64,000 nucleotides of DNA. Origin: Phyllobates terribilis. Lineage: Eukaryota. Below, in pieces: positions 10,988 through 59,779 of this stretch. Positions within the stretch are counted from its first letter, which is position 1, and each line of letters starts with the position of its first letter. Under the pieces are notes generated by a model that searched no databases, was not told the DNA's origin, and saw only the letters and a program-made list of their open reading frames with translations. The position numbers and the translations under genes are program-made. Where the stretch lies: the NCBI RefSeq assembly GCF_046119375.1, contig NW_027362773.1, positions 112,840,001 to 112,904,000 on the forward strand. The letters run 5' to 3'.

Positions 10988-12613
10988 CAGTGGGTATGGA
11001 AAGTATTCAGACCCCTTTCAATTTTTCACTCTTTGTTTCATTGCAGCCATTTGGTAAATTCTAAAAAGTTCATTTTTTTCTCATTAAAGTACACACTACA
11101 TTTTGACTGAAAAAAAAACAGAAATGTAGAAATTTTTGCAAATTTATTAAAAAAGAAAAACTGAAATATCACATGGTCATAAGTATTCAGACCCTTTGCT
11201 CAGTATTGAGTAGAAGCACCCTTTTGAGCTAGTACAGCCATGAGCCTTCTTGGGAATGATGCAACAAGTTTTTCACACCTGGATTTGGGGATCCTCTGCC
11301 ATTCTTCCTTGCAGATTCTCTCCACTTCCATCAGGTTGGATGGTGAATGTTGGTGGACAGCCATTTTTCGGTCTCTCCAGAGATGCTCAATTGAGTTTAG
11401 GTCAGGGCTCTGGCTGGGCCAGTCAAGAATGGTCACATTCTGAATCCACTACTTCGTTATTTTAGCTGTGTGCTTAGGGTCATTGTCTTGTTGGAAGGTG
11501 AACCTTAGGCCAAGTCTGAGGTCCAGAGCACTCTGGAAGAGGTTTTCATCCAGGATATCTCTGTACTTGGCCGCATTCATGTTTCCTACAAATGGCAACC
11601 AGTCGTCCTGTCCCTGCAGCTGAAAAACACCCGTATAGCATGGTGCTGCCACCACTATGTTTCACTGTTGGGATTGTATTGGGCAGGTGATGAGCAGTGC
11701 CTGGTTTTCTCCACACATGCCGCTTAGAATTATCACCAAAAAGATCTATCTTCATCTCATCAGACCAGAGAATCTTATTTCTCATAGTCTGGGAGTTCTT
11801 CATGTGTTTTTGTGCAAACTCTATGCGGGCTTTCATATGTCTTGCACTGAGGAGAGGCTTCTGTCGGGCCACTCTGCCATAAAGTCCCGACTGGTGGAGG
11901 GCTGCAGTGATAGTTGACTTTGTGGAACTTTCTCCCATCTCCCTACTGCATCTCAGGAGCTCAGTCACAGTGATCTTGGGGTTCTTCTTTACCTCTCTCA
12001 CCAAGGCTCTTCTCCCACGATTGCTCAGTTTGGCTGGACGGCCATGTCGAGGAAAACTTCTGGTTGTCCCAAACTTCTTCCATTTAAGGATTATGGAGGC
12101 CACTGTGCTCTTAGAAACCTTGAGTAATGCAGAAATTCTTTTGCAACCTTGGTCAGATCTGTGCCTTGCCACAATTCTGTCTCTGAGCTCCTTGGGCAGT
12201 TCCTTTGAGCTCATGATTCTCATTTGGTCTGACATGCACTGTGAGCTATGAGGTCTGATATAGACAGGTGTGTGCCTTTCCAAATCAAGTCCAATCAGTT
12301 TAATTAAACACAGCTGGACTCCAATGAAGAAGTAGAACCACCTCAAGGAGGATCACAAGGAAATGGACAGCATGTGACTTAAATATGAGTGTCTGAGCAA
12401 AGGGTCTGAACACTTATGGCCATGTGATATTTCAGTTTTTATTTTTTAATAAATTTGCAAAAATTTCTACATTTCTGTTTTTTTTCAGTCAAGATGGGGT
12501 GCAGAGTGTACTTTAATGAGAAAAAAAATGAAATTTTTAGAATTTACCAAATGGCTGAAAAGAAACAAACAGTGAAAAATTTAAAGGGGTCTGAATACTT
12601 TCCGTACCCACTG
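10988..12613 (-). mobile_element. Tc1-family DNA transposon, 1626 bp, long (about 220 bp) IR/DR-type TIRs
   Basis: TA TSDs; TIR cagtgggtatggaaagtattcagacc at both ends; transposase homology on the minus strand. Confidence 0.95.
11200..12214 (-). pseudogene. Disrupted Tc1 transposase
   Basis: MSSKELPKELRDRIV (HTH), [15 protein letters not shown] and WPSQSPDLNSIE motifs are split over three ORFs, with an in-frame TAG and frameshifts. Confidence 0.92.
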
Positions 12614-18362: not shown

Positions 18363-19936
18363 CACTGCTCAAAAAAATAAAGGGAACACTTAAACAACAG
18401 AATATAACTCCAAGTGAATCAAACTTCTGTGAAATCAAACTGTCCACTTAGGAAGCAACACTGATTGACAATCAATTTCACATGCTGTTGTGCAAATGGA
18501 ATAGACAATAGATGGAAAGTATTGGCAATTATCAAGACACCCTCAATAAAGGAGTGGTTCTGCAGGTGGGGACCACAGACCACATCTCAGTACCAATGCT
18601 TTCTGGCTGATCTTTTGATCACTTTTGAATGTTGGTTGTGCTTTCACACTCGTGGTAGCATGAGACGGACTCTACAACCCACAGAAGTTGCTCAGGTAGT
18701 GCAGCTCATCCAGGATGGCACATCAATGCGAGCTGTGGCAAGAAGGTTTGCTGTGTCTGTCAGCGTAGTGTCCAGAGGCTGGAGGCGCTACCAGGAGACA
18801 GGCCAGTACACCAGGAGACGTGGGGGGGCCATAGGAGGGCAACAACCCAGCAGCAGGACCGCTACCTCTGCCTTTGTGCAAAGAGGAACAGGAGGAGCAC
18901 TGCCAGGGCCCTGCAAAATGACCTCCAGCAGGCCACAAATGTGCATATGTCTGCACAAACGGTTAGAAACTCCATGAGGGTGGTATGAGGGCCCGACGTC
19001 CACAGATGGGGGTTGTGCTCACAGCCCAACACTGTGCAGGACGCTTGGCATTTGCCACAGAACACCAGGATTGGCGGAGTCGCCACTGGCGCCCTGTACT
19101 CTTCACAGATGAAAGCAGGTTCACACTGAGCACATGTGACAGACGTGACAGAGTCTGGAGACGCCGTGGACAGCGATCTGCCGCCTGCAACATCCTTCAG
19201 CATGGCCAGTTTGGCAGTGGGTCAGTAATGGTGTGGGGTGGCATTTCTTTGGAGGGCCGCACACCCCTCCATGTGATCGCCAGAGGTAGCCTGACTGCCA
19301 TTAGGTACCGAGATGAGATCCTCAGACCCCCTGTGAGACCATATGCTGTTGCGGTTGGCCCTGGGTTCCTCCTTATGCAGGACAATGCCAGACCTCATGT
19401 GGCTGGAGTGTGTCAGCAGTTCCTGCAAGGTCAAGGCATTGAAGCTATGGACTGGCCTGCCCGTTCCCCAGACCTGAATCCGATTGAGCACATCTGGGAC
19501 ATCATGTCTCGCTCCATCCACCAACGTCACGTTGCACCACAGACTATCCAGGAGTTGGCGGATGCTTTAGTCCAGGTCTGGGAGGAGATCCCACAGGGGA
19601 CCATCCGCAACCTCATCAGGAGCATGCCCAGGCATTGTAGGGAGGTCATACAGGCACGTGGAGGCTACATACAATACTGAACCTAATTTTGACTTGTTTT
19701 AAGGACATTACATCAAAGTTGGATCAGCTTGTAGTGTTTTTGCACTTTAATTTTGGGGGTGACTCCAAATCCAGGCCTCCATTGGTTAATAAATTTGATT
19801 TCCATTGATGATTTGTGTGTGATTTTGTTGTCAGCACATTCAACTTTGTACAGAACAAAGTATTCAATGAGAATATTTAATTCATTCAGATCTAGGATGT
19901 GTTATTTGAGTGTTACCTTTATTTTTTTGAGCAGTG
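18363..19936 (+). mobile_element. Tc1-family DNA transposon, 1574 bp, short TIRs
   Basis: TA TSDs; TIR cactgctcaaaaaaataaagg(g/t)aacact. Confidence 0.95.
18660..19680 (+). pseudogene. Frameshifted DD34E Tc1 transposase
   Basis: [14 protein letters not shown] (HTH), FTDESRF, MQDNARPH and SPDLNPIE with 34 residues between D and E; frameshifts near 18825 and 18970. Confidence 0.93.
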
Positions 19937-21973: not shown

Positions 21974-24260
21974 GGGTGACATCCATGTGTCATCAGTGTG
22001 ACACGTACCGGCGCCTGGGAATCAGCTCTACAGTTAGCACTGCTCCCAAGTGCCGGGTGCTGAACGCTGCCCTCATCGTGGTTCCGGCTGCCGCTGCGAT
22101 CAACACCAGCAGGGACAGTGATGAGGGTAGTAGTAGTCTTCTACCGCAGTGTCCCTGTGTAAAAATAAGATTAAAATAATAAAATCCATATACAGATCTG
22201 TTTTAAGTGTCCCCCATTGTAATCCTCTGACCTCTGACGCCAAGGAGCCGGGGAGAATGAGCCGCTGCAGCGATTGGCCCCGGAGATGAGCTCAGTGAGT
22301 GACAGGACACCGCTCCTGAGCTAAGCTATGGGGCCCACTCGCTGGAGCGGCTCATTTTCCCCAGGGTCAGCGGTCAGAGGATTACAGCAGAGGACACTTA
22401 GAACAGGTGAGTATATGGATTTTATTATTTTAATCTTATTTTTAATTTTTACACAGGGACACTGCTGGAGAAGACTGCTACTACCCTCATCATTGTCCCT
22501 GCTGGTGCGGATCGCAGCTCCGGCCGGAACCATGATGAGGGCAGCGTTCAGCACCCGGCGCATGGGAACAGCGCTAACTGTATACTGATTCCCAGGCGCC
22601 GGTCCGTATGATCCTGATGCAGCACATGGGCAGCACACCGTTGCCACACGGAACACGGATGTCTCCGGTACCGGAAATATACGGACGCGTGAAACCGGCC
22701 TAAGGATCAGTTTAGCGTGTGGTCTTTAACCCTAACCAGTACTGATTAAAAAGTGTAGGAGTGAAAACATGTCGTCAGCAACTTAAAACTGGAACAGATT
22801 AAAGTAAATTTGAGGCAACTCAGCCTAAGGCTAGGGTCACACAAGCATATAAAAAATTGGTCCATTTTTCATCCTGAAAAGTGGGACGATTTTTTTTCTC
22901 ACTTGCCATTCACGTACAATCCGTTTCTTTACTCAGCTGTTATTAATCATTTACAGGACCATTTACAGTTTCCTATGTTACAGAATTGCAAAGTATCCGT
23001 AAAAATCGGATATTATACTGTGTCACCATACGGCATCCGATTTTTTTTCTCGCACCCATAGACTTGAATGGGCGAGTCTCTCCGATTTCCGGATGAAAAT
23101 TGTGCATGCTGTGTTTTTTTCAGACACAGATTCGGCCAGTGAAAACAATCACTCATCTGTACTGCTTATTGAATAAATTTGGTCCGAGTACGATACATTT
23201 TTTTTAACATGTAACACTCGGACCAAAAATACGGTCACGTGCACGAGCCCTAGCGGTTACAGTCTCCTAAAAAGGGCAAATATATATTCTTGTACCGTGT
23301 TAGCCAGTAGATAGAAAAATATTTATATTTGAAAGTCCTCAGTGGTTGATACCTTTTAATGGCTAACTGAAAAGATGGTAAGAAATTGCAAGCTTTCGAG
23401 ACTACTCAGGTCTCTTCATCAGGCATAGTATACCTCAAAATCTGAAGAGTCACATATTTATACACAATAAGACACACAAAAAATGCAATAGGTAAGACAG
23501 GTGATGAAACACCTAAACATTTCTGGCTATAAATATTTTAGCAGTTAATAGATAAGGAGTGTGAAGGTTTTATTGTCATGTGACTAGGTCCAGTGTTGTG
23601 ATGGCCTCAGAAGTCTGAGGAGCACATTCCTTAGTTGATGTAGAATGACATAAATCCGTGCGACACATTCATTCCTGCTCTGAAAGTGTTAAAGGTCACC
23701 ATCAGTTTATATTCTGAGATTCTTCTTTCTCTTTGAGATTTAAAGTTACCTTTTAATACCATTCTACATCAGCTAAGGAATGTGCTCCTCAGACTTCTGA
23801 GGCCATCACAACACTGGACCTAGTCACAGGACAATAAAACCTTCACACTCCTTATCTATTAACTGCTAAAATATTTATAGCCAGAACTGTTTATCTCTTC
23901 CATAATAACTCTGCTTTTCATCACCTGTCTTACCTATTGCATTTTTTTGTGTGTCTTATGGTGTATAAAGAGGGATTTTTGGTACTCACCGTAAAATCTC
24001 TTTCTTGGAGCCTTCATTGGGGACACAGGACCATGGGTGTATGCTGTTGTCACTAGGAGGCTGACACTAGGCAAAAAAGAAAAAAGCTCCTCCTCCGCAG
24101 TATACACCCGCCTACAGGCATGAAGCTCACCAGTTAGTGGCTAAAGCAGTAGGAGGAACTTAAACAATTAACTATGCAATGCCCAACATGGCACAACCGC
24201 GAAACTATATTAGATGCCCAACAGGGCCCACTGTAGCTATGCCCAAAATCAGGGAGGGTG

Positions 24261-24358
24261 CTGTGTCCCCCAATGAAGGCTCCAAGAAAGAGATTTTACG
24301 GTGAGTACCAAAAATCCCTCTTTCTTTATCGCTTCATTGGGGGACACAGGACCATGGG
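24261..24358. other. DIRS1 internal complementary region (ICR)
   Basis: ...gagtaccaaaaatccctc|tttctttatcgc... is the reverse complement of the joined right and left termini. Confidence 0.92.
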
Positions 24359-24409
24359 ACGTCCTAAAGCAGTCCCTAGGGTGAGAGAACAGAAAAAGGT
24401 AGCCACAGA

Positions 24410-25462
24410 CTAGGTCTGACTGCCGGCAACTGCTGCCTGCAGAACCTTCCGTCCAAGACTGGCATCAGCCGAGGAATAAGTGTGGACCTTGTAAAACCTT
24501 GAAAAGGTGTAGAGTGAAGACCATGTTGCAGCCTTACAAATCTGAGAAGCTGAAGCCTGATGGCGAACAGCCCAAGAGGCCCCCACCGCCCGGGTGGAGT
24601 TAGCCCTTACCCCCGGAGGCGGAGATTTGTCCGAGACGCGATATGCTTCCAAAATGGTAGAACGTATCCAACGGGCGATTGTTGACTTGGAAGCAGGGAG
24701 ACCCTTGCGACGCCCCTCAGGAACGACAAACAGGGCGTCCGAACGCCGAAGGGGAGCCGTTCTAGAAAGGTACACACGCAGAGCTCTGACCAGATCCAGT
24801 TTGTGCAGGGATTTCTCCCGAGGGTGCACTGGGGCCGGGCAGAAGGAAGGCAAAACAATGTCCTCATTGATGTGGAAAGAGGAGACTACTTTTGGCAAAA
24901 AGGAAGGCACCGGCCTGAGCACTACCTTGTCTTGATGGAATACCAGAAATGGTGACCGACAAGAGAGGGCTGCGAGTTCTGCAACCCTCCTAATAGAGGT
25001 AATAGCCACCAGAAAAGCCACCTTCCAGGAGAGAAGAGAGGCTGAAATGTCCTGAATGGGTTCAAATGAGGGCTGTTGAAGGACGCTCAGGACCATATTA
25101 AGGTCCCATGGAACCACCGGGTGGCGATAATCCGGCGCTAGGTGAGCCACCCCTTGCAGAAACGTCTTGACCTGAGGACAGAAAGCCAAGTTTTGCTGGT
25201 ATAGAATAGACAAGGCCGAAACTTGGCCTTTGAGAGTGCTTAGAGAGAGTCCCGCTTCCAGGCCAGACTGAAGGAAGGCCAAAATGACCGGTAGTGAAAA
25301 GACATGGGAGCTAGCTGATCCTTTTCACAGTGACGAAAGAAAGCTCTCCAGGTTCTGTGGTGTATGCGCGAGGTTGCGGGTTTCCTGGCACTAATTAGGG
25401 TCTGGATAACGTTGTCCGCAAAACCAGCTTTCCTTAACACTGCGGCCTCAATAGCCATGCCA
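24410..25462 (-). pseudogene. DIRS1 tyrosine recombinase (frameshifted near 25290)
   Basis: The N-terminal part (AGFADNVIQTLISARKPAT..YHRTW-like) is in ORF 25240-26295; the catalytic part SIRR..NSTR..W..FSRFY is in ORF 24410-25282. Confidence 0.9.
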
Positions 25463-27577
25463 TTAAATTCAGAGACCGAGAACTCTGATGAAGAATAGGT
25501 CCCTGAGAGAGGAGGTCCGGACGGTCTGGCAGTCTCCAGGAGGAGTCGACGAGCAGGTTTACCAGATCTGCGTACCAGACGCGTCTTGGCCAATCCGGGG
25601 CTATTAGAATTACCTGTACTCCCTCTGTCTTGATCTTTTTGACGACCCGAGGAATCAATGGTAGAGGGGGAAATAGATAAGGGAGCTGGAACTGAGACCA
25701 TGAGATGACTAGCGCATCTTGAGCGATCGCAAGGGGATCGCGGGACCGGGCTACGAAGGATAGAACCTTGTGGTTTAACCGAGAAGCCATGAGGTCGACG
25801 TCCGGTGTGCCCCATCGTAAGCATATCTGATGGAACACCTCGGGATGGAGAGACCATTCTCCTGAGGCAAGGCCCTGCCGATTGAGGAAGTCGGCCGCCC
25901 AATTGTCGACCCCCGGAATGTGCACTGCTGAGATTGCCGGAACAGTGTTCTCGGCCCAAACTAGCACTCTTGCCACCTCTTTGAAGACGGACTTGCTGCG
26001 TGTTCCTCCCTGACGGTTTATGTACGCCACCGCCGTGGCGTTGTCCGATTGTACGCGGACTGGGAATCCAGCAAGAATGTCCTGCCAGTGACGCAACGCC
26101 AGATAAATTGCCCTTATCTCCAATATATTGATTGGCAGGGAGGCTTCGTGGAGACTCCAACGGCCCTGCACTGTGTGGTGGAGGAAGACTGTCCCCCAAC
26201 CTATGAGGCTGGCATCGGTTGTGACTACCTGCCAGCGAAGTGGCAGGAATGACCTCCAGAGTCTGAAGGAAGAAGGACGAGTCCACTTCTGACATGAGGA
26301 GGTAACCTGATGCGTCGATCTAGAGACGACGGGTTCTTGTCCTATGCCGACAGAAGGGCCAGTTGAAGAGGCCGGGTATGGAACTGGGCAAACGGGACAG
26401 CTTCCATGGCTGCCACCATTTTTCCCAAGACACTCATGCACAAGCGAAGGCGGAGTGGACTCGGGTCGGAGAGAAGGTGAATCCCCCGACGGATAGAGTC
26501 TATCTTCTCCCTTGGGAGAAGGACCCGGGCATGGGTCATGTCGAACTGCATCCCTAGAAAGGTTAAGCGCTGAGATGGGACCAGGGAGGATTTGTCTGTG
26601 TTGATCAACCAGCCTAACCGAGAAAGTGTGTCCAGGGTGATCTGGAGACTGTGGAGACAGTCCCTGAATGTGGGACCCTTGATCATTAGGTCGTCGAGGT
26701 AGGGGATAATTACAATCACCCTGGCTCGTAGAATGGCCATGACCGTCGCCATTACCTTTGTGAAAACCCTCGGGGCGGAGGCAAGCCCGAAGGGGAGAGA
26801 AGTGAATTGGTAATGTGCGCTCTGGAAGGCAAATTGAAGGAACTTCTGATGTGGTGCGTAAATTGGAATGTGAAGATACGCATCCTGAATATCCACTGAA
26901 CATAGGTATTCCCCGGCCTCCATTGAGGCGATTACCGACCTGAGGGACTCCATTCTGAAGTGCCGTACGCGTACCTGTCGGTTTAGTTGTTTGAGGTCTA
27001 GGATCGGACGTAGTGAGCCGTCCTTTTTTGGAACGATGAAAAGATTTGAGTAGAAACCTGAACACCTTTCTTGGATGGGGACTGGAACTATAACTCCTGA
27101 GTGCAGAAGGGAGGCAATGGCCTGAAGGAAACCGGGAAGTCGAGATGAATGCGGGTGGCGGGACCTGAGAAATCGTGTTCTTGGCATGGTGTTGAACTCG
27201 ATTTTGTAGCCTGAGGTCACTATCTCCTTGACCCAGGCATCCTCTATTGCCGATACACAGGGGTCTCGGAACAGAAGAAGACGGCCGCCCACCCTGGGAG
27301 AAATCCCAGGTGGGAGTGACCCGTCATGCTGAGGAAAACCTGTTGGATCGAGATCGGGATTCAGAGGACTTGGAAGAGCGATCCTTTGCACGCCAGCTGG
27401 GAGTTGGCCTAAAGGTAGGCTTACGTTTGTCTTGCTGTGCTGGGGTACGGTCCTGTTGAGAGGAGGATCCTGGTTGAGAGAACCGACGAAAGGACCGGAA
27501 CTGAAGGTAACATTTTCTAGGAAAAGGGCGATTAGGTCTCGACTGAGGAAGGGAAGTGCTCTTGCCCCCAGTGGCAT
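25434..27577 (-). pseudogene. DIRS1 pol: reverse transcriptase, RNase H and Dam-like methyltransferase domain
   Basis: LRPILDL, DIQDAY, LPFGL and YLDD (RT); TDAS, LEIRA, DN and ADFL (RNase H); DLMAS..YLFPP (MT); TGG to TAG stop at 26342-26344 plus a nearby frameshifting deletion. Confidence 0.93.
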
Positions 27578-28808
27578 CAGAGATGATCTGGTCTAATTTA
27601 GACCCAAACAGTCTGGAGCCCTGGAAAGGGAGATTTGTTAGTGATTTCTTGGAAGCCGGGTCGGCGTTCCAAGCCTTCAGCCAAAGAATCCTACGTATAG
27701 CGATGATATTGCTGGAGACGCGTGCTGAACAGGTAGCGGCGTCGAGGGATGCCGTGAGGAGATATTTCCCTGCGTGGGCAATCTGATCCGCTAGGTCAGC
27801 CAGATCGTCTGGGGAAGCCCCGGAAAGGATGCCCTGCCCAAGCTGTTTGGCCCATGCGGAGACTGCCTTTGATACCCAAGTTGAGGCGAAGGAAGGACAA
27901 AAGGAGGTGCCAGCAGCCTCGAAGGCTGACTTAGCCAAGGCCTCAACCTGTCTATCTGTAGTGTCCTTGAGGGAAGAACCATCTGGGAGGGACAGTACCG
28001 TCTTAGCCGAAAGACGATAGACAGGAGGATCCACAGAAGGGGACTCCGTCCATTTGCTGACGAGGTCGTGGTTAAATGGGTATAGCATGTCTAACTGCTT
28101 CTTTCCAGTGAAGCGTTTCTCTGGATGCTCCCATTGTTTTTCAAAGTTTTGAAATTCTGAATGGTTAGAGAAGGTGCGTGCCGGGCGCTTAATTCTCTTG
28201 AAGGAAAAGGAGTAGTCCTGAGAAGGGCTCTCGTCCTCTTTAACATGCAGAGTGTGATTGACGGCCGATATAAGGCGGTCAACCATGTCCTGGACTTTAG
28301 AATATTGGTCCGTATCGGATCCAGAGTCAGAATCTGATTCAGTGTCAGATCCCGGAGCGGCCTCTTGGGAAGAGGTGTGAGATGCAGGGAGCAATTTGGA
28401 GTCTGGAGAGCTGGAGGATGAGCTTGTGTGAGTACGTTTCTGAGAACGTGCCCTCGGTCTGCCCTTAGAAGGAGGGGGCAGGGGTGCCTGCGAATCGTCC
28501 GTTGGAACGTTCGGAGCACTGGTGGCCGTGGATAGCATGGGCAAACTTTCTAGGACCTGCACCAGAGATTGAGATACCTTGGTGAGGTCAGAGACAGACT
28601 GGGACATAGCAACAGCCCACTCCGGAGGAGGGGGAGTTACCTCGTCCTGGGCGGCAGGGGGGTCTTGGGGTGCCAGCATGGTGGGAGGCTTGCAGGTCAA
28701 GCAGAAAGCCGTTGTCAGACCCGCGGGCCACTTAGTACTGCAAAGAGCACAGGCATAATATGTGACTGTGTGAGTGGGACGGACAGAAAGCTCCCTGGGT
28801 TTGGGCAT
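27324..28808 (-). CDS. DIRS1 gag-like ORF1 (494 aa, open)
   Basis: Long ORF upstream of and overlapping pol; N-terminal CxxC..CxxC and vertebrate DIRS ORF1 motifs (P.VDPPV, D..DR.VE, RR..WL..W..D...K..L..LPF.G..LFG..LD). Confidence 0.85.
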   Translation of the reverse strand: MPKPRELSVRPTHTVTYYACALCSTKWPAGLTTAFCLTCKPPTMLAPQDPPAAQDEVTPPPPEWAVAMSQSVSDLTKVSQSLVQVLESLPMLSTATSAPNVPTDDSQAPLPPPSKGRPRARSQKRTHTSSSSSSPDSKLLPASHTSSQEAAPGSDTESDSDSGSDTDQYSKVQDMVDRLISAVNHTLHVKEDESPSQDYSFSFKRIKRPARTFSNHSEFQNFEKQWEHPEKRFTGKKQLDMLYPFNHDLVSKWTESPSVDPPVYRLSAKTVLSLPDGSSLKDTTDRQVEALAKSAFEAAGTSFCPSFASTWVSKAVSAWAKQLGQGILSGASPDDLADLADQIAHAGKYLLTASLDAATCSARVSSNIIAIRRILWLKAWNADPASKKSLTNLPFQGSRLFGSKLDQIISDATGGKSTSLPQSRPNRPFPRKCYLQFRSFRRFSQPGSSSQQDRTPAQQDKRKPTFRPTPSWRAKDRSSKSSESRSRSNRFSSA

Positions 28809-29336
28809 ATGTGACTGACCAGAAATACTGCAGAGGAGGGAGCCTGTGTGGTGCCAGAGTAGGTTCTACCCGGTCTGGAATGTGCACGGTCCCGTATCCC
28901 CAGTCAGAAAGTCCGGAGACGCGGAGACAGGAGCAGAGCTGTGGTGATGAGGCAGTCAGACAGGATGCTGCTGCCGGAGCCAGAACGAGAGCAGCGTAGA
29001 GGGGCGGAGAGTGTTTCCCTGAGCAAGCTAGGGGAGCCAAAGCTCTGATAGGTAGAGGGGATGGGGGGGCGAGCTTAAGAACTTGGCCGCTGATAGGCCC
29101 CTGGGATAAAAGTGGGCGTGACGGAATCGTCATAACGCTCCACAGTCCTGATTGGCCGTTTTCCGGGAGGGGCGTGTACCCGCCCAAAAGAGAAATGCCA
29201 ACCCGAACCCGCCCCCCGAGAAAAAGCGCGGGCAGAATTGCCGCGCAAAAGAGGGAGAGAGAAACGGGGGGGAGGGTTGTTGTTCTGTGGGAGACGCTAT
29301 CCTGGGGAACGCCATTGAGTATGAGGTCCGTCTATC

Positions 29337-30091
29337 TGTGATGCCCAGCTGTGCTTGGTATCACAGATCCTAGAAGGGTGTATTGAAGGATTCCTCCACA
29401 AGAGGCCCCCATAACCATTCACACATCTCCACCTTCCACCTCAGACCACCAGAGGGAGCCCGTTAGGGATAGATAAATAGGGAAGGTGGAGCCAGGCAGC
29501 TCAGTTCCTCTGGAGAGTTCAGCAAGTACAAACCTAAATGCAGAGTCGAGCTCAGTTAGTCTAGACTGGAACTGACAGAGAGCAAACCTGTTGAGAGAGT
29601 TCCTGCAGTAGAAGCCTGAGAGAGGTCAGTCTGCAGTGGAGCGTGTTCTAGCTCAGAGAGGTGAGCTTTTGGTGTGCCGGCGCCATAAGATTGGTGAAGC
29701 GCGGCAAGCTGCCGTTAGTGTGAGTAGCCTATTGAAGGCCCGAGTAGGCCGAAGGCGAGTAGAGAGAGTTAGTTCATAGGGGGCAGAGGAGCTTAACTAG
29801 CTCACCCCGAAGAAGCAGTTACCGGACACCGGGTCCGAAGCTTACCGGGATCTCCACGACCCAGTAAGATAAACCGGAATCCCTGGAGAACTACAAGTCC
29901 CAGGATCGCTAAAGTGCTGATACGTACCAGAGCCAGGAGACACATAGGCCCCGTAAGTCGGGAGCGTGTAATCCAACAGAAGGCCCTACCACAAGGTCAG
30001 CCAGCGCAGGACAGAGACAAAGTTAGGCCTAGCTCCAGGCAGGTCAGAAACTTACCACGCAGAGGCAAGAAACAGGAGGCCCAAAACCCGC
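29337..30091 (+). mobile_element. 5' part of a second, oppositely oriented LTR, fused to the truncated 3' LTR of the cold-shock element
   Basis: Begins with TGTGATGCCC...GGTATCACA hairpin, then ATAAATA and a purine-rich tract; no similarity to 32964-33745. Confidence 0.5.
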
Positions 30092-30589
30092 TCTGTTCCT
30101 TTCTGTTTCTGTTCCTTTCTGTTCCTGTTCCTTTTTTCTGGCTCTGGCCTTCACTCTAGGCCTGCCTCGTGGAGCTGGGCCCAGACTGAGCCACAGCTCC
30201 CTGTCAGCCCTCTCTGGCTGAACTCCTCTTCTCCTCCTGACTGAATCTCTCTCAGAAATAAGATGGTGCCCACCTTATATACCTCCCTCTCTGTGTATGA
30301 GTCCAGGTGACTTGCAACCAATGGGCTCCTACCTATGCCCAGAAACCGTCCTCTCCTGCTCCTACATCACTGGGTTTTCCTCCCCACTCCAGCCAGGGAC
30401 AGGTTCTGTCGTGCCTGCATTACTGTACTAATGGGAGCACCGTTGAGCTGTCCCCCGGAAATGGGGTATGTGTGATGCATGCAGCTAACTGAGTCCCGGT
30501 CCACACACCATCCTTACCCGGGAGTGGGATATCACACCTCTGGTTGAGGTGCAATACCTCTGTAGCGACCGAACCCTCGGGGCGCTACA

Positions 30590-30600
30590 TTCCCCCCTGG
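30590..30600 (-). promoter_or_regulatory. Polypurine tract
   Basis: ccaggggggaa directly precedes TGTAGCG of the 3' LTR on the minus strand. Confidence 0.8.
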
Positions 30601-31191
30601 TAAACCACAGCACGTCCTCGGGCTGGAAAAGAGCAAAGACAATTCAAAAACATACATTTTTAGAATGCATTCGCATATAAGACAATAACCATTTAACCCA
30701 TCCCTTTATGGGAGGCACTTTTCTCCTTTAACGTTACTGGTACACTTTTCTCCTTTAACAAATATTACAAGACTTTCTTCACACATATAAAATACCATAA
30801 AACTCTTTTAGCAGCATATAAAACTTTTCAGTATAAAACATTCTTAAGTAAAACATATTCTTGGGTACTGGCCGCGGTGCAACTTGCGACCAGGTGTTTT
30901 TTCTTCTTAAAGGTGCAACAGTCCAGCAAATTTGTCTTGAGGTAGACGTTGCAGTCTTTTAATAAAACCTGTAGGGGGCGCTTTAGGAAGCGCAACTATT
31001 TACAGGGGCGGCCGCTCTCAGTCCTCGGCCAGGTAGGGAGGGGAATGGCTGTTCTCAGTCCCCAGCCAGATTAGGGAAAAGGGATGGCTGTTCTCAGTCC
31101 CCAGCCAGATTAGGGATATAGGGGGTAACTTCCAAACATCAGTTCTTATACCCTGACGGGTAACTATATACATAGGCACATTTTCTCCTCC

Positions 31192-32043
31192 TTACCACTG
31201 ATGGTATCCTCCATATGCGCCTTGTTCCTCCGGGTAGTCTTCAGGCCTGTCCTGGCCCTCTTGGTACTCGGGGTCCGAGTGGTACTGCTCCTCCTCTCCT
31301 ACCACTCTATGGACGTGGAGGGCGTACAGTCCTTTTGCACCCTTGTGCCGGGTGTAGGTGACCACGTCGCCAGGATATAAATCTCGTCCGCGATGTCCCT
31401 CTGGCAGGTGGCTCTCGACGTCCCTGCGGGTCAGAAAGACGTCGTCGGTGGTTTCAGGGTCCTTGATGAAGCCCCAGCCGCGATCCATCTGAAACTTCAC
31501 CACGGTCCCGGTGACTCTGGGACCGCTGGCAGCTCGGGGTTTCTGTTGGGCTCTTCTCTTCTGCTCCGCACTCCGTGTTTGGAGCCGCTCCTCCCTGACA
31601 CGTCGCTCCCGCCGCTCCCTCTCAAATGTCGCCAGCTGTTGGCGGCAGGACTCCAGTCCACGGGCTGCGTCCGCCCGGGTTTCCTGGGTGAACCCCATCA
31701 GGTTTTCTCCAGTGGGGTCCCACTCGAACTGGGCGTCCTCCAGCGGGGGATAGCTTATCTCTCTGGGCTCCGGAGCTGGTATCAGGGGTTCGCGCGGGGG
31801 CTGGTCTCTCCATTGGCGGCTGCTGATCAGGTCGGCCGGCCATACCAGGGGCAGTCCATCCGGGCCGGTGTGCTGGGCGAATAGATCCACGCCCAGGGGC
31901 AGTATGGCAGGGGGCCCCGGTGGGGGAGCAGCGCCCGGGGGCACTCGGCCTTGCGACCATGCCGGTGGTCGCCTGCTGGTCGTGCCCGGGCGTGGCACCG
32001 TCAAGGAAGGGGGCGCTCGTGAGGCAGTGACGCCCGGGTGCAC
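31192..32043 (-). CDS. LTR-element ORF2: Pro-rich region, coiled coil, cold-shock domain (about 31303-31515), acidic/Tyr-rich tail; true start uncertain
   Basis: VTGTVVKFQMDRGWGFIKDPETTDDVFLTRRDV...LYPGDVVTYTRHKGAKGLYALHV matches the CSD pattern GTVKWF...KGFGFI...DVFVH...L.EG..V.F....G.KG..A.NV. Confidence 0.8.
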   Translation of the reverse strand: MHPGVTASRAPPSLTVPRPGTTSRRPPAWSQGRVPPGAAPPPGPPAILPLGVDLFAQHTGPDGLPLVWPADLISSRQWRDQPPREPLIPAPEPREISYPPLEDAQFEWDPTGENLMGFTQETRADAARGLESCRQQLATFERERRERRVREERLQTRSAEQKRRAQQKPRAASGPRVTGTVVKFQMDRGWGFIKDPETTDDVFLTRRDVESHLPEGHRGRDLYPGDVVTYTRHKGAKGLYALHVHRVVGEEEQYHSDPEYQEGQDRPEDYPEEQGAYGGYHQW

Positions 32044-32095
32044 TAGGCCTTGCGACCCGGCCTATGACGTCTCTCTCTCTTTATTGCGCCCGGGG

Positions 32096-32878
32096 TTAAA
32101 GGGCACGGCGCGGGGCGGGGCGCGACAGCAGTGTTTGCAACCTGAGGCCTAGCTGGTAGCGGCAGAGGTGTGGCGACAGGTGCGGTTCCCGGGGCTTCGG
32201 GCCTTGCAACGGGAGGCTGAGGTATGCTCGCGTTTTCAGGGCTGGGAGTGGTGACGTCCCCGTTACCTGCCTCGGTTGTTGCGGTCTCCTCCGTGGCGTC
32301 GTCCCCGGACTCTGGTCCACCTTCACCGCCCTCGGCGTGCGGCTGGGCGGTGGTAGCGCCTCCTGCGGTCGGGTCACGGCTTGCCTTGCCAACTCCTCCT
32401 TCCACCCGGCGATCACGTCCCGCTGCGCCCGGACCATCCTCCGGTCCAGGTCTTCTAGCGCGGCTTGCGCACGCTCCAGGTCTCTGGGGAGCTGCGCCAG
32501 CAACTCTGTTAGGCTGCATGGTGGCTCAGCCTGCAGCAGGCTACGGGCCAGCGTGTTGGTGGGGTGCGGTGCTCCTTCCATTCCCGGGTGTGGCCTGTCC
32601 AGACTGATCCAGACCGCACCCTGCCCCACAGTTTTCTTTCCTGTCCGCCCCCATTGGGGGTGGTCCTGGGGCCATCTGCTGACAATCACTTTCAGGGGCA
32701 GCCCCCCCACATTGATGGACATCTCTACAGCCGCACTCATGGCTGTTGGGGGCGGGCTCCTTCTTTGGCGCCATTCTGGGACCTGGCCCACGATGGGAGG
32801 TGGCTTCCTGCTGTCTTTTGGCGCGCACATTATGGCGTCCGTTCTGCTGGGGCGGGCGCCATTTTTCAACACAGTCAA
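32096..32878 (-). CDS. LTR-element ORF1, uncharacterised, with coiled-coil segment (first ATG at 32830)
   Basis: 260-codon GC-rich ORF just downstream of the PBS; heptad-like LAQLPRDLERAQAALEDLDRRMVRAQ; no recognisable family motif. Confidence 0.5.
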   Translation of the reverse strand: MTVLKNGARPSRTDAIMCAPKDSRKPPPIVGQVPEWRQRRSPPPTAMSAAVEMSINVGGLPLKVIVSRWPQDHPQWGRTGKKTVGQGAVWISLDRPHPGMEGAPHPTNTLARSLLQAEPPCSLTELLAQLPRDLERAQAALEDLDRRMVRAQRDVIAGWKEELARQAVTRPQEALPPPSRTPRAVKVDQSPGTTPRRRPQQPRQVTGTSPLPALKTRAYLSLPLQGPKPREPHLSPHLCRYQLGLRLQTLLSRPAPRRAL

Positions 32879-32940
32879 TTTCGATTAAACAGTCTCTTTC
32901 TCTTCAGGGCGCAATACCCGTTGGTGGCGGGTTGGTAACG

Positions 32941-32958
32941 ATCCTGCCGACTACATCA
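32941..32958 (-). promoter_or_regulatory. Primer-binding site complementary to the tRNA-Ser 3' end
   Basis: Plus-strand atcctgccgactacatca versus tRNA-Ser(AGA/TGA) 3' end atcctgccgactacgcca (16/18), 5 nt inside the 5' LTR end. Confidence 0.8.
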
Positions 32959-35900
32959 AAAGTTGACGCGCCCCCTGGGCCGCGTGGGGAACCCGGAACC
33001 GGGCCCTTTTTGTGGACGCTGGGGGTTGTAGTCACCGTGGCGGCGACCCGGTCCCGTGGCTCAGGGTGGTCAAACCAGTGGCAGTCTTTATAGGGTTTTT
33101 GTGGTTTAATGTCCGACTATGCCACCCGTGGATTGCGGTCAGTGCGAACCGCCGCTGCAAGGCTGGGGCTGATGGTGTATGCAGCTGAGGTCATGTAACT
33201 CCCCACGGGAGGAGTGCAGCCCCAGGGCAGTGTAGTAGATGGTGGGGGTGATGGTGCGCGGGCGTCCCAGCACTAGTAGTGCTGTATGCGGTGAGAAAGC
33301 ACAGAGACAAGGTATTGCAGTTCAAGTTCTTTTACTCACAGTTCTCATCCAGGTCACTTATGCGCAGGTAGGACCGCCAGAGCCGTGCTGCATCCACCAG
33401 GCAGGGGGCCCGGTCAACCCCCAGGTAATTACGGAGTGTGGCACAGGACTCCCTTCTATCCTTTCGTCAGCCGTGCCCCACCAGTGACACTACTTCTGTC
33501 CAGCTGCCTCGGTCTTCTCTTGGGAGGCTGGGTGTCCACTTCCCTGACCCTATGTGGTGTGCCTTTCTAGTAGGTGTAGTGAGGGGTCGCACCAGTAAAT
33601 GGTCACGACCGCCGGTCCTTGGCTGAGGATTAGTCGCCTCTACCAACTTGGGATCCGGTACCCTGTTCTGCCAACCCGTCACCCGCAATCTCCTGGGTCC
33701 TTAGGGTTCCTTCTGCCTTCGTGTCTCTGGGCCTCTCTTGGTGTTCTGTTCCTTTCTGTTTCTGTTCCTTTCTGTTCCTGTTCCTTTCTGTTCCTTTCTT
33801 CTGGCTCTGGCCTTCACTCTAGGCCTGCCTCGTGGAGCTGGGCCCAGACTGAGCCACAGCTCCCTGTCAGCCCTCTCTGGCTGAACTCCTCTTCTCTTCT
33901 CCTCCTGACTGAATCTCTCTCAGAACTAAGATGGTGCCCACCTTATATACCTCCCTCTCTGTGTATGAGCCCAGGTGACTTGCAACCAATGGGCTCCTAC
34001 CTATGCCCAGAAACCGTCCCCTCCTGCTCCTACATCACTGGGTTTTCCTCCCCCCTCCCCACTCCAGCCAGGGACAGGTTCTGTCGTGCCTGCATTACTG
34101 TACTAATGGGAGCACCGTTGAGCTGTCCCCCGGAAATGGGGTGTGTGTGATGCATGCAGCTAACTGAGTCCCGGTCCACACACCATCCTTACCCGGGAGT
34201 GGGATATCACACCTCTGGTTGAGGTGCAATACCTCTGTAGCGACCGAACCCTCGGGACGCTACATAAGCATCGGCAGGGAAAAGAGAAGCTTCCCTATTA
34301 ACCCATGATTGAGATGAGAGGGCTGAGGGAGCAGCAGGGATGAATTGTACCTTTCTCGATGACTGTTCTTGCTCCTTCCCTCTGAGGATGTACACAGGAG
34401 GTCCTCCGTGGATAGGGGGGATCCTGGCTTTTCCTCCTTCCCGCACTGACCGGTCCTGAACAGCGCAGGAGACGGTGTCGACCTCAGAATCTGGGGGAAG
34501 GTCACCGTAGTGACCACCGTCTCCCTCCCAGTCCGCTCTGAGGAGGGGGCTGGCGTGGGGAATGGGCAAGGACTGGCCACCAAGAATCACCCTGAGACAC
34601 CCTAAGGTGGCAGGGGATAGGTCCTGTCCAGCGGGTCCGAGAGTGGGCGATGTGGGGGTAGCCACATTGCTCTCTCGATCGCTAGTGGATTAACAGGGGA
34701 CGCAATGTGCCCTGTTAGCCTGAAGAGCTGTATCTGAAAAATAAAGATGAAATGTTAATAACACACAACAGGGTTGGATCTGAGAAGATCCAGGTCTACC
34801 TCTTACAGACACTAAGCTTAAACTGGTGAGCTTGATGCCTGTAGGCGGGTGTATACTGCGGAGGAGGAGCTTTTTTCTTTTTTGCCTAGTGTCAGCCTCC
34901 TAGTGACAACAGCATACACCCATGGTCCTGTGTCCCCCAATGAAGCGATAAAGAAATATTTGACTCTTCAGATTTTGTGGTATACTAGCCTGATGAAGAG
35001 ATCTGTGTAGTCTCGAAAGCTTGCAATTTGTTACCATCTTTTCAGTTAGCCATTAAAAGGTATCAACCACTGAGGACTCTCAAATCTATATATTTTTCTA
35101 AAAAGGGCGGAAACTTTATGGTTGCATACTGAGTAGTGGCACAGAAACTGGTTGCACTGGTGCAGACAACAGGGCCTGCAACTACTCCCTCAGATCTCAG
35201 GGTCACTTTTTTCCTTTGTAGACCGCCCTCCAAAATCTCTGACTGGCCTCGAGGTGCTGTCAACTTCTCCTTTTATAATTTGACTCCACCTAGAATGGAG
35301 GCTATATACCGACCACCTACAAAACACTTCACTTATAGTACGTTTTGGCTATGTCCCACAATGAGCTTTTGGTGAGTTTTTGATGTTGAAGATTTTCTGC
35401 GCCCATTAAGTAAGATCAGTTACTTGCATTTTTTTCTAAAAAAAAACACAGTGTAAAAAAACTTACCAAAACTCATTGTGGGAACGTAGCCTTAAAATGC
35501 TAAAGCTGCATAGCATGCAATATTTGCAACACAAAAGACTAAAAATAGTTGGCACAATTGGTAAGCCTACGTATTCGCGCCTGACGTCATCTGTGACTGA
35601 CTCAATCTTCTGAAATGTGTAAACTGGCGTCTGGTATTTTTTTTTCGACTGAATGGAATCACAAATTGTTCGAATTTGACGGGATCTGAGAATTTCATAA
35701 AATTTGACTTAAATTTGAGTTTCTATTGAATCAATTCAAGTCACTAGTCACGTCAGGTGATACAATTTTGGGGTTCTACGAGCTCAGGTTTCCACCAATT
35801 CCCAAAATGATTTCAATGATGCACAACTATTGTGAAATAAATGTCAGAGAAATCTCACACACCGTTCTTATGATGTAGGTAACGTTTTCTTTTAATGCAC

Positions 35901-39802: not shown

Positions 39803-41390
39803 CAGTACAGACCAAAAGTTTGGACACACCTTCTCATTTAAAGATTTTCTGTATTTTCATGACTATAAAAATTGTACATTTACACTGTAACACATCAAAA
39901 CTATGAATTAACACATGTGGAATTATATACTTAACAAAAAAGTGTGAAACAACTGAAAATATGTCTCATATTCTTGCACACTCTTGGCATTCTCTTGATG
40001 AGCTTCAAGAGATAGTCACCGGAAATGGTCTTCCAACAATCTTGAAGGAGTTCCCAGAGATGCTTAGCACTTGTTGGCCCTTTTGCCTTCACTCTGCGGT
40101 CCAGTTCACCCCAAACCATCTCGATTGGGTTCAGGTCTGGTGACTGTGGAGGCCAGGTCATCTGGCGTAGCTCCCCATCACTCTCCTTCTTGGTCAAATA
40201 GCCCTTACACAGCCTGGAGGTGTGTTTGGGGTCAGTGTCCTGTTGAAAAATAAATGATGGTCCAACTAAACGCAAACCGGATGGAATAGCATGTCGCTGC
40301 AAGATGCTGTGATAGCCATGCTGGTTCAGTATGCCTTCAATTTTGAATAAATCCCCAACAGTGTCACCAGCAAAGCACCCCCACACCATCACACCTCCTC
40401 CTCCATGCTTCACGGTGCGAACCAGGCATGTAGAGTCCATCCATTCACCTTTTCTGCGTCGCACAAAGACATGGTGGTTGGAACCAAAGATCTCAAATTT
40501 GGACTCATCAGACCAAAGCACAGATTTCCACTGGTCTAATGTCCATTCCTTGTGTTCTTTAGCCCAAACAAGTCTCTTCTGCTTGTTGCCTGTCCTTAGC
40601 AGTGGTTTCCTAGCAGCTATTTTACCATGAAGGCCTGCTGCACAAAGTCTCCTCTTAACAGTTGTTGAAGAGATGTGTCTGCTGCTAGAACTCTTGTGGC
40701 ATTGACCTGGTCTCTAATCTGAGCTGCTGTTAACCTGCGATTTCTGAGGCTGGTGACTCGGATAAACTTATCCTCAGAAGCAGAGGTGACTCTTGGTCTT
40801 CCTTTCCTGGGGCGGTCCTCATGTGAGCCAGTTTCTTTGTAGCGCTTGATGGTTTTTGCAACTGCACTTGGGGACACATTCAAAGTTTGCCCAATTTTTC
40901 GGACTGACTGATCTTCATTTCTCAAAGTAATGATGGCCACTCGTTTTTCTTTACTTAGCTGCTTTTTTCTTGCCATAATACAAATTCTAACAGTCTATTC
41001 AGTAGGACTATCAGCTGTGTATCCACCTGACTTCTGCACAACACAACTGATGGTCCCAACCCCATTTATAAGGCAAGAAATCCCACTTATTAAACCTGCC
41101 AGGGCACACCTGTGAAGTGAAAACCATTTCCGGTGACTACCTCTTGAAGCTCATCAAGAGAATGCCAAGAGTGTGCAAAGCAGTCATCAAAGCAAAAGGT
41201 GGCTACTTTGAAGAACCTAGAATATAAGACATATTTTCAGTTGTTTCACACTTTTTTGTTAAGTATATAATTCCACATGTGTTAATTCATAGTTTTGATG
41301 TCTTCAGTGTGAATCTACAATTTTCAAAGTTATGAAAATACAGAAAAATCTTTAAATGAGAAGGTGTGTCCAAACTTTTGGTCTGTACTG
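39803..41390 (-). mobile_element. Tc1-family transposon, DD38E (Intruder-like), 1588 bp
   Basis: TA TSDs; TIR cagtacagaccaaaagtttggacacacc; right TIR about 268 bp, left TIR 227 bp owing to a 41-bp deletion. Confidence 0.93.
39931..40976 (-). pseudogene. Frameshifted DD38E transposase
   Basis: MARKKQLSKEKR (HTH), LWSDESKF, FQQDTDPKH and SPDLNPIE with 38 residues between D and E; frameshift near 40680; C-terminus deleted. Confidence 0.9.
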
Positions 41391-44310: not shown

Positions 44311-44619
44311 CTTGTGCAAACAACATTGAGAAAAAAAAAACATATATTACTTTTCCAAATAAACAGGTAACATGCACTCGGTATAACATACATGTCACTA
44401 TATGATGTTGTTATTTACTAACTGAAGACATAAGAGTCAGCGATCATCACTGGTTATGTAATAAAATAATATTTTACATATAAAAAACACTTTATGGCAG
44501 TTTAGACTCCTAAATCAGTCCTTGTTCTCATTTCCAAAGATTTGTTAATGACCAAGGTCAAGCTAGTAATTTAACAATCAGATCAATCAAATCAATTTTC
44601 TTTTGTGTTATAGGATCTT

Positions 44620-45080
44620 GGGTGGATGGATGGATAGAAAGAAGGATGGATGGAAAGAAAGATGAATGGATGGATGGAAAGAAGGATGGATGAAGGAATG
44701 ATGGCTGTATGGAANNNNNNNNNNNNNNNNNNNNNNNNNNNNNNNNNNNNNNNNNNNNNNNNNNNNNNNNNNNNNNNNNNNNNNNNNNNNNNNNNNNNNN
44801 NNNNNNNNNNNNNNNNNNNNNNNNNNNNNNNNNNNNNNNNNNNNNNNNNNNNNNNNNNNNNNNNNNNNNNNNNNNNNNNNNNNNNGGAGGAAAGATGCAT
44901 GGATGGAAAGAAGGAAGGATGGATGGATGGAAAGAAGGATGGATGGATGGACAGATGGATGGATGAATGGAAAGAAGGATGGAAAGAAGGATGGAATAAG
45001 GATGCATGGATGGATGGATGGATGGAAAGAAGGATAGATGGATGGATGGAAAGAAGGATAGATTGATGGATGGAAAGAAG

Positions 45081-45140
<60 letters not shown>

Positions 45141-45145
45141 CAGGG
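44620..45145. repeat. (GGAT/GGAA/GATA)n microsatellite containing an assembly gap (N 44715-44885)
   Basis: Direct reading. Confidence 0.95.
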
Positions 45146-45173
45146 AAAAATAGATGGATACAGGGACAGATAG

Positions 45174-45586
45174 TGTGACAAAGTCACTGGCATGTTATGT
45201 GCTGAGAGGGTTAATCAGCCATTTTTATGGGCCAGTTTTTTGTGAACGACTATAGAGCGGGTGGGAGGTCGTTCACCATATCTCCACCCCAGGGTGTGGT
45301 CTTGGGTTTAAATACCCAGCCTGTAGAGGCATTCAGTGTTCAGTAAGTCTGGAGAGGCAAACTCCAGACATGTTTGTGTTGAGATGACCTGAACCATGTG
45401 GAGTTGCTAAACTCTGAGCAGGCGGACCCCTGCTAACACAAGGACTGTGTTTTGCCCAAAGGGCCGTGTTTATTTTTATGGACTCAATGTTGGTTTATGT
45501 TGCATTCTAATAAACCAACAAGAAATTTAAAGAGACAGTGTACCTGTGTCTACCTCCGTGTGCAGCTGAGTGAGCGATCTACCACA
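45174..45586 (+). mobile_element. Solo LTR (413 bp) inserted in a GATA microsatellite
   Basis: TGTG...CACA ends, 4-bp TSD ATAG, TTTAAATA and AATAAA inside. Confidence 0.75.
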
Positions 45587-57540: not shown

Positions 57541-58369
57541 CTAAAATAGAGAAAAATTTTGAAAAAATAAGCTTCATATAAATATTAAATTCATTTCACT
57601 AATACATTACATCAGGCAGAATTCTATGGATAAGCCAAGAATCATGTTGGCTTGAACAATTCAGAATATCATAACTTTTTCCTGATTAGTTTCAGTCGTA
57701 GTAATTGGAAATAGACATAAGTTCTGGTGCTGCTGTGTATGAACTCAACCTAATCCCCTCATCGGGTAAAATACAAAAATAATAATAATGTTGCGCCATC
57801 AAAGCAAAGTGGCGTAATGTGGGGTACCAGCGCCCAGTCAAAGACAAGTATTTTGTGTCCTCTTAACCCTATGGCCCATTAGCTGTCCCCGAGCCCCTTC
57901 TACAAGTCTAGTATTGAGCCCCTTATCCCCATGAACATGTATTTTAAGAAAATACTGGATATTTTCCCCATTATCCCTCTATTTTTTTCAGCATTTTGCT
58001 GAAATCAAATATAACATATAAAAAAATATAAAGTTATATATTGCTAGCATTTTTTTTTTGCTCTTTATTTTTTTTTTTATATAATGATATTATTACCCTT
58101 GCCTAGCCCTAACCCTAGCCCCAGTACTATACCTAAACCTAGCCTTGATATTTTGCAGCCTGACTTCAGACCTTGCCTTTGAAATTTCATTTGCCTAGCC
58201 CCCTTGTTTCGATCAGCACCGTTTTGGACTGCTGACTTCGGACTGTGACTTGTTTACTTTTTTGTTTTGCTCCTCTGCCTTTGACATACTCTCTTAGTAT
58301 TTGACCTCAGACTTCTTGACTCCCCTGCCTCACGGTTTGAATGTGAGAAGTGATGATAACCAGTGTCAC

Positions 58370-59779
58370 AATACTATACTTAAACCTAGCCCCCATCCCA
58401 GCCCTGATCCTAGCTTAAACCCTAGCCCCAGTACAATACCTAAACTTAGCCCCCATACTAGCCTTAACCCTAACCCCAATAGTATACCTAAAGCTAGCCC
58501 CCATCTAGACCTAACCCTAGCCCCAATACTATACCTAAACCTAGCCCCCATCCTAGCCCTAACCCTAGCTTAAACCCTTGCCTCAGTACTATACCTAAAC
58601 TTAGCCCCCATACTAGCCTTAACCCTAACCCCAATACTATACCTAAACCTAGCGCTCATTCTAGACCTAACCCTAGCCCCAATACTATACCTAAACCTAG
58701 CTCCCATACTAGCCCTAACCCTAGCCTAAACCCTTGCCCCAGTACTATACCTAAACCTAGCCCCCATACTAGCCTTAACCCTAACGCCAATACTATACCT
58801 AATCCTAGCCCCATTCTAGACCTAACCCTAGCCCCAATACTATACCTAAACCTAGCTCCCATCCTAGCCCTAACCCTAGCCTAAACCCTTGCCTCAGTAC
58901 TATACCTAAACCTAGCCCCCATACTAGCCTTAACCCTAACCCCAATACTATACCTAAACCTAGCCCCTTTCTAGACCTAACCCTAGCCCCAATACTATAC
59001 CTAAACCTAGCTCCCATCCTAGCCCTAACCCTAGCCTAAACCCTTGCCTCAGTACTATACCTAAACCTAGCCCCCATACTAGCCTTAACCCTAACCCCAA
59101 TACTATACCTAAACCTAGCCCCTTTCTAGACCTAACCCTAGCCCCAATACTATACCTAAACCTAGCTCCCATCCTAGCCCTAACCCTAGCCTAAACCCTT
59201 GCCTCAGTACTATACCTAAACCTAGCCCCCATACTATACCTAAACCTAGCCCCATTCTAGACCTAACCCTAGCCCCAATACTATACCTAAACCTAGCTCC
59301 CATCCTAGCCCTAACCCTAGCCTAAACCTTTGCCCCAGTACTATACCTAGCCCCCATACTAGCCTTAACCTTAACCCCAATACTATACCTAAACCTAGCC
59401 CCCATTCTAGGCCTAACCCTAGCCCCAATACTATACCTAAACCTAGCTCCCATACTAGCCCTAACCCTAGCCTAAACCCTTGTCCCAGTACTATACCTAG
59501 CCCCCATACTAGCCTTAACCCTAACCCCAATACTATACCTAAACCTAGCCCCCATTCTAGGCCTAACCCTAGTCCCAATACTATACCTAAACCTAGCTCC
59601 CATCCTAGCCCTAACCTTAGCCTAAACCCTTGCCCCAGTACTATACCTAGCCCCCATACTAGCATTAACCCTAACCCCAATACTATACCTAAACCTAGCC
59701 CCATCCCAGCCCTAACCCTAGCCTCAACCCTTGCCCCAGTACTATACCTAAAACTAGCCTCCACCCTAGCCCTAAACCT
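58370..59779. repeat. Telomere-like (CCCTAA-variant) satellite with about 155-bp higher-order periodicity
   Basis: Built from ccctaa/ccctag/cctaaa hexamers; identical ORF artefacts start at 58805, 58960 and 59115. Confidence 0.9.

Follow-up and report, generated by a model that had tools for sequence, protein, structure and literature searches.

What can a cold-shock domain do for a retrotransposon that encodes nothing else? The question is raised by a locus of the poison frog Phyllobates terribilis (NCBI RefSeq assembly GCF_046119375.1, contig NW_027362773.1). A 64,000-nucleotide stretch of this contig (positions 112,840,001–112,904,000, forward strand; hereafter the window) holds, on its minus strand at 30092..34264, a long terminal repeat (LTR) retroelement whose only recognised protein domain is a cold-shock domain (CSD). 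A preliminary description, made from the letters of the window, took it to belong to a non-autonomous LTR family with a genuine CSD. That view held: its copies combine LTRs, a primer-binding site (PBS), a polypurine tract (PPT) and target-site duplications (TSDs) with the absence of pol and with recent insertions.

Non-autonomous LTR elements are usually described as non-coding or Gag-carrying. An element with nothing but a strongly selected RNA-binding domain of host type would be a retrotransposon parasite investing in an accessory protein of its own. On balance, we favour a reading in which this non-autonomous, Gypsy-type element is mobilised by a helper and its CSD protein binds its own RNA and raises the chance that this RNA is copied.

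A high-copy family with one open reading frame

The preliminary description had named copy number as one check on its reading. The CSD motif, searched as a degenerate 30-nt pattern, had 22,667 exact matches in the genome, which makes this a high-copy family, and a 33-nt pattern spanning the LTR end and the PBS had 40,142 matches; the reversed control gave 0 in each case. Both counts are lower bounds (the PBS of the window copy itself escapes the junction pattern), and CSD-type copies would occupy about 1% of the 10.6-Gb assembly if they are mostly full length.

Twenty other copies, picked for long open frames, were ~5 kb each with one open reading frame (ORF). Fifteen of them had scorable full LTR pairs, with a TSD of 4 bp in 12 and a median LTR divergence of 2.0%. 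Among 24 copies, the protein was encoded in one frame from a Met and was 490–610 aa long (~550 aa). Of the 40,142 junction matches, we also examined the first 80; these 80 all lie within the leading 18 Mb of contig C1, a biased place. They comprised 43 CSD-type loci, 35 gag-bearing loci and two others; the frame was open through the CSD in 29 of the 43 (26 scored by script, three added by inspection), and both LTR ends were TG...CA in CSD-type full copies.

Named relatives came from frogs only, namely Phyllobates, two species of Ranitomeya, Anomaloglossus and Bufo, the search in Bufo returning two proteins only. One protein (P0001) was near-identical to young genome copies and was not counted as independent. 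Three shorter relatives (L139, L140 and L141) have a CSD that begins at a Met, and in L139 and L141 a different PBS-like sequence follows a family-1-like LTR end. Diverged CSD ORFs with no detected LTR pair occur at L137 (4378–5274), L149 (4826–5608) and L150 (3215–4765; oriented coordinates).

A probable gag-pol partner with common cis sequences

Reverse transcriptase (RT), RNase H, integrase and protease had been reported missing from the element, and this was upheld: Pfam found only the CSD, and tblastn with the helper gag-pol left 21 of 22 CSD-type interiors without a match, the exception being a single 33-residue match in L071. An autonomous partner with the same LTR and PBS had been named as something to look for, and the gag-bearing junction loci provide a candidate, a gag-pol Gypsy element that has the LTR 3' end and the PBS in common with the CSD type. 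In one helper copy (L082), Pfam recognised PNMA, zf-CCHC, protease (below cut-off), RT, RNase H and integrase domains in Gypsy order. Near-full gag-pol coverage was found in 15 of the first 40 junction loci; in L075, pol lay behind an insertion. Gag and pol are in different frames in most helper copies (L053–L086), consistent with a -1 frameshift, and in one frame in L082.

The two types have in common the last ~280–370 nt of the LTR, the PBS and a leader of 60–200 nt, matching at 68–82% in most of 11 pairings (L072/L060 gave a shorter match), and their PPTs are similar. The PBS shows complementarity to tRNA-Ser genes of this genome (AGA and TGA); 4 of 12 fetched motif loci were called as tRNA-Ser, and the first four tRNA-motif loci gave no such call (three without a call, one called tRNA-Ala). 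PBS-like sites in two other LTR elements, L188 and L191, presumably reach far into tRNA-Ser, in L191 as far as the anticodon arm.

TSDs flanked 17 of 18 CSD-type (4 bp) and 11 of 12 helper-type full LTR pairs. Median LTR substitution was 0.245% in the CSD type (n = 18, three at 0.0) versus 0.81% in the helper (n = 12; p = 0.004). Both classes are young and recently inserted, and helper-driven mobility of the CSD element is very probable.

The cold-shock domain and its putative binding surface

In four frames of the window, the CSD was the sole Pfam domain, and PF00313 scored 34.4 bits against a cut-off of 27 (E 2e-8); of three other copies, one scored 25.4 and fell below this cut-off. Sequence matches in the PDB numbered nine (E 2e-4 to 9e-4): a bacterial cold-shock protein and eight CSDs of Y-box proteins, with YBX1/2 the best. 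An unbroken natural copy (L032) was modelled with AlphaFold from a shallow alignment of 28 rows. The model has a confident five-stranded oligonucleotide-binding (OB) barrel with a predicted local confidence (pLDDT) mostly of 85–89, a helix at residues 384–431 and a weaker helix at 118–153; the rest is disordered, the N-terminal 108 residues being of low confidence. Foldseek matched the modelled barrel to CspA (template-modelling score, TM, 0.87) and YBX1 (TM 0.74). Profile and predicted fold thus agree with the CSD identity proposed in the preliminary description. The ESM Atlas gave only CSD leads below 0.9 for the C-terminal part and nothing usable for the N-terminal 160 residues.

In the window copy, the CSD lies at 31306..31512 (minus strand). 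Ahead of it, at 31543..31686, is a predicted helix of 48 residues, 24 of them Arg or Glu, that is under purifying selection. What had been described as a coiled coil corresponds to this helix; that it oligomerises is a supposition. The acidic, Tyr-rich tail described after the CSD is present as an acidic, Tyr-containing segment at 31195..31300, disordered in the model.

In YBX1, bases are contacted by W65, F74, F85 and H87, with K118 nearby, as described in PMC7498358. The element CSD retains the equivalents of F74, F85 and K118 (62 of 63 copies each), has lost those of W65 and H87, has a Trp at the Y72 position and carries additional basic residues. Nucleic-acid binding by this domain is plausible, and is probably unlike that of YBX1.

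Selection on the protein

Pairwise dN/dS (nonsynonymous to synonymous rate, omega) and codon-model tests were applied to 24 intact ORFs, with likelihood ratios against omega = 1 from IQ-TREE. The CSD gave 0.08–0.15 (likelihood ratio 371), the motif-plus-helix region 0.15–0.21 (393), the first helix 0.18–0.42 (109), the N-terminus 0.42–0.74 (39) and the Pro-rich linker 0.50–0.56 (5.8). ORF conservation, with dN/dS below 1, had been named as a check and is evident in the CSD, which several subfamilies each hold at omega about 0.1. Synonymous divergence in the CSD is high (dS 0.6–1.4).

Among 45 older copies, private CSD changes numbered 54 nonsynonymous (N) and 22 synonymous (S), which fits the neutral expectation of 2.44, and shared changes 33 N and 68 S (p = 5e-7). 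In 36 copies sampled by PBS alone, changes seen in one copy were 36 N/21 S and those in three or more copies 45 N/88 S. Because private changes are neutral-like and widely shared ones mostly synonymous, we conclude that inserted copies decay and that the lineages which spread have kept the protein. Under cis-preference reasoning, such a pattern indicates a protein whose benefit falls to the RNA from which it was translated. It suggests a self-directed protein here; the sample is small and also compatible with a protein supplied in trans by a few source loci.

Five deletion copies without a CSD have breakpoints that all differ, and three premature stops lie at different places. A shared lesion considered for L223 and L231 was rejected, both frames being open. 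Independent CSD-removing deletions in L052, L065 and L207 have one rejoining point in common, a short sequence of the acidic-tail region, which suggests a template-switch hotspot.

Proposed mechanism and alternatives

In the mechanism that we propose, the LTR would drive a full-length RNA, from which a protein of ~550 aa would be made that acts preferentially on the RNA encoding it. The protein would protect this RNA from decay or silencing, or help it to get into helper particles. The Gag of the helper, which has a CCHC knuckle itself, would recognise the U5/PBS/leader region common to both elements; helper RT would prime on tRNA-Ser, and helper integrase would make the 4-bp duplication. The self-directed RNA-binding role is the part that we hold to be rather more probable than not. 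More tentatively, the element may be a coding satellite whose captured CSD acts as a cis-acting tag that wins its RNA places in helper particles, matching and recently outpacing the helper; the same strategy would then operate in two or more families whose LTRs are unrelated, probably across hyloid frogs, and account for ~1% of the 10.6-Gb genome. This wider picture is possible, with the balance leaning against it.

Several observations weigh against the mechanism. We infer the partnership from common cis sequences alone, the U3 parts of the two LTR types do not align, and a second CSD family (described below) has no detected helper, with gag-pol in 0 of 20 sampled loci. The ORFs in the codon tests were selected for openness and come from subfamilies that look recombinant, so tree-based tests are possibly distorted, and the 80 junction loci share the one 18-Mb region. 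Changes present in exactly two of the 36 PBS-sampled copies look neutral (25 N/9 S). Five of the 43 CSD-type copies have no CSD yet are young; CSD-less genomes can insert at least once. Two of the four core base-contacting residues are lost, YBX1 W65 being replaced by Lys (61/63) and H87 by Thr (62/63). W65 of YBX1 reads 5-methylcytosine, a capacity that would be lost in the element CSD.

The young CSD-less copies and neutral-like doubletons would suit a protein working in trans in the germline, either against silencing or in translation, for instance by competing with Y-box proteins or PIWI-interacting RNA factors, in the same element with the same helper; selection would then reflect a few source loci. 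A trans-acting benefit lets defective copies free-ride, but no lesion was common to the broken copies checked, and the omega of about 0.1 that the CSD has in each of several subfamilies also speaks against this account. It does gain from the abundance of Gypsy RNA in poison-frog ova described in PMC6278860, and we regard it as unlikely but worth keeping in view. The fixed loss of the W65 and H87 equivalents, together with a surface motif of the long loop, RRDVESHLPEGH, that does not vary, would fit a domain that has given up nucleic-acid binding and now makes contacts with proteins, docking for example on helper Gag or a host factor. The retained F74, F85 and K118 equivalents, the Trp at Y72 and the added basic residues argue otherwise, and such a change of function seems improbable.

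The preliminary description had further supposed that the CSD stands in for a CCHC knuckle. The ORF would then be a highly diverged Gag that forms its own particle. In keeping with this idea, it follows directly on the PBS, is the one ORF of the element and has a domain of nucleic-acid-binding type towards its C-terminus; a Gag-like ORF is also known from frog elements that lack pol (PMC4585706). The supposition was not borne out, because likeness to Gag was missing by Pfam (no Gag domain in the ORF), by tblastn (the 21 empty interiors), by profile–profile comparison with helper Gag (probability 0.1%) and in fold, the model from 28 rows having no helical capsid domain and low confidence in its N-terminal 108 residues. 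The N-terminus is also the less constrained part of the protein, and all 15 helper copies examined have the CCHC knuckle, against 0 of 26 CSD ORF rows. By sequence and model, the CSD protein appears to be accessory cargo with no detectable Gag or capsid similarity, and a Gag identity is very unlikely. Least probable of all is conservation through host benefit or an overlapping RNA signal in place of selection on the protein at the level of the element: CSD synonymous sites are strongly diverged, and inserted copies decay neutrally, unlike host genes.

Origin of the domain and a second family

A CSD tree was built from 48 rows and 77 columns. Twenty-one rows (the frog element CSDs, the Bufo "YBX2-A-like" proteins and two further proteins) formed one group with 98/95 support, and this group fell on one side with Y-box-like rows at 28/64 support only, in a tree with no LIN28 row. 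The element CSDs hold together, and their Y-box placement is weak. The loop length of the element CSD is YBX-like. The CSD was likely taken from a host gene by RT template switching long ago; the source was perhaps a Y-box gene, which 28/64 support neither shows nor rejects. Template switching in LTR particles is described as a documented route of capture in PMC5131818.

The second CSD-only LTR family (L145–L148, L151–L159 and L168–L187) has LTRs of ~1.02–1.04 kb with no nucleotide match to the first, the same tRNA-Ser PBS, a ~2.6-kb interior and a CSD ~33% identical to that of family 1. It had 466 exact LTR-end-plus-PBS matches in the genome and a CSD in 17 of 20 sampled loci. In 13 copies, changes were 23 N/31 S (private) and 12 N/22 S (shared). 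A search for its CSD among shorter proteins found nothing. Because this family, with unrelated LTRs, has the same pol-less layout, the CSD-only design is apparently either old or transferred between LTR backbones. No autonomous CSD-carrying element was found among the 80 family-1 junction loci, the 20 family-2 junction loci or 23 loci around diverged CSDs, several of which hold gag-pol pieces of neighbouring elements.

The CSD of L137 retains the RNP2 His and groups in the element clade. L111/L138 holds a single decayed Y-box-like CSD that has no LTR context and groups with Y-box-like rows. Intronless multi-CSD frames, apparent retrocopies, are clustered on contig C1 (L091–L098), with exon-like pieces on C2; we take them to resemble CSDE1/UNR.

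Comparison with known systems

Capture of a CSD by LTR elements and pol-less LTR elements in frogs are both already known. In bird endogenous retroviruses (ERVs), PF00313 was captured several times and is present in 46 ERVs (PMC12287698). These are alike in carrying a host-type PF00313 inside an LTR element, but they are few and were found among complete gag-pol-env ERVs, with no selection test reported in the sections describing them (PMC12287698), whereas the frog element has the CSD as its sole gene, probably depends on a Gypsy element, has over 22,000 copies and shows a degenerate RNP surface. The Xenopus elements 1a11, xretpos(L) and lambda-olt 2-1 are likewise pol-less frog LTR elements with an ORF and are transcribed in embryos. 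As described in PMC4585706, however, the 1a11 protein is Gag-like, copies number tens to hundreds, the elements were judged probably immobile, and a tRNA-Arg primer was suggested for xretpos. The CSD element has a tRNA-Ser PBS, a non-Gag protein, a helper-like element and insertions with identical LTRs.

TR-GAG elements carry Gag. Like TRIM, LARD and TR-GAG elements, the CSD element retains LTRs, PBS and PPT and would need an autonomous partner (PMC13570524), as in the MaLR/MERVL pair (PMC5131818). It differs from the non-coding TRIM and LARD in its non-Gag protein under purifying selection, with an open frame in 29 of 43 copies. LTR-mediated retrocopies also place host sequence between LTRs by template switching and are remobilised non-autonomously (PMC5131818). 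By analogy, their route of formation is the likely origin of the CSD element; such retrocopies are described as mostly young and low-copy, whereas the frog CSD cargo is old, ~30% identical to host CSDs, and selected. Maize Bs1 is another case of host sequence between LTRs. The helper has the domain order of Gypsy elements (Metaviridae) with PNMA-type Gag, with which the CSD element has only cis sequences and no protein in common. BHIKHARI of zebrafish has a single-ORF layout. It is an LTR family expressed in the embryo (PMC9341512).

We found no account of a non-autonomous element with a selected CSD protein as its only gene in the literature searched, which left subscription journals, Repbase and Dfam outside. 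The main texts of PMC6278860 and PMC12208295 contain none of the words "cold", "Y-box" or "autonomous". With tens of thousands of copies and a two-partner system, frogs offer the statistical power to examine the role of a CSD in a retroelement, and the answer bears on the large size of poison-frog genomes. Annotation is also affected: the element clade takes in frog proteins that databases label "uncharacterized", "CSD domain-containing" or "Y-box-binding protein 2-A-like", and such entries are likely element ORFs.

The window copy and its surroundings

The window copy runs on the minus strand from a 5' LTR through the PBS, an interior of exactly 2374 bp and the PPT to a partial LTR. The 5' LTR (32964..34264) is 1301 bp long, in agreement with the full LTR pairs of other copies, and has TGT...TCA ends, a TATA-like sequence at 33949 and AGTAAA at 33336. 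The PBS (32941..32958) is of the tRNA-Ser type with two mismatches. A single ORF (31192..32830, Met at 32830) carries two frameshifts, near 32335 and 32080. The PPT lies at 30590..30598, and of the 3' LTR (30092..30589) only the first 498 of 1301 bp align to the 5' LTR, the rest being deleted.

The preliminary description had read this as a unit with two ORFs between nearly identical LTRs. Its 5' LTR, PBS, PPT and interior length were correct, but what looked like ORF1 and ORF2 are the outer parts of a single frame that the two frameshifts split here; the supposed 283-codon ORF2 is open, with 289 codons from stop to stop and its first Met at residue 122. The terminal repeat is likewise present, with a truncated 3' LTR that leaves the TSD unreadable. 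Over 498 bp, the LTR pair has six mismatches and three gaps. The window copy is decayed, and recent mobility, which the description had read from this pair, rests on other copies.

Fused to the truncated 3' LTR is the beginning (~755 bp) of an LTR from a different Gypsy family (29337..30091, plus strand; 85% to L037 6884–6163). One deletion is the simplest account for the missing inner ends of both LTRs. Both LTR elements sit in the 5' region of a DIRS-type retrotransposon (24019..34937, minus strand), with inverted, 99% complementary termini, long gag, RT/RNase H and recombinase-like frames, and Pfam matches to RT, RNase H and LAP2alpha. Five uninterrupted copies of this host element (L122–L126) bridge window position 29329 to 34265 (four copies) or 34311 (one copy), across ~56 nt.

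Elsewhere in the window, Tc1/mariner-like transposase frames were noted by eye at 11546–12352, 18465–19680 and 39931–40713. Tandem arrays occupy 58096–59900 (a CCCTAA-rich repeat of 12/24 bp) and 61700–63040 (a 25-bp repeat with an internal inversion), and a GGAT/GATA microsatellite lies at 44600–45200.

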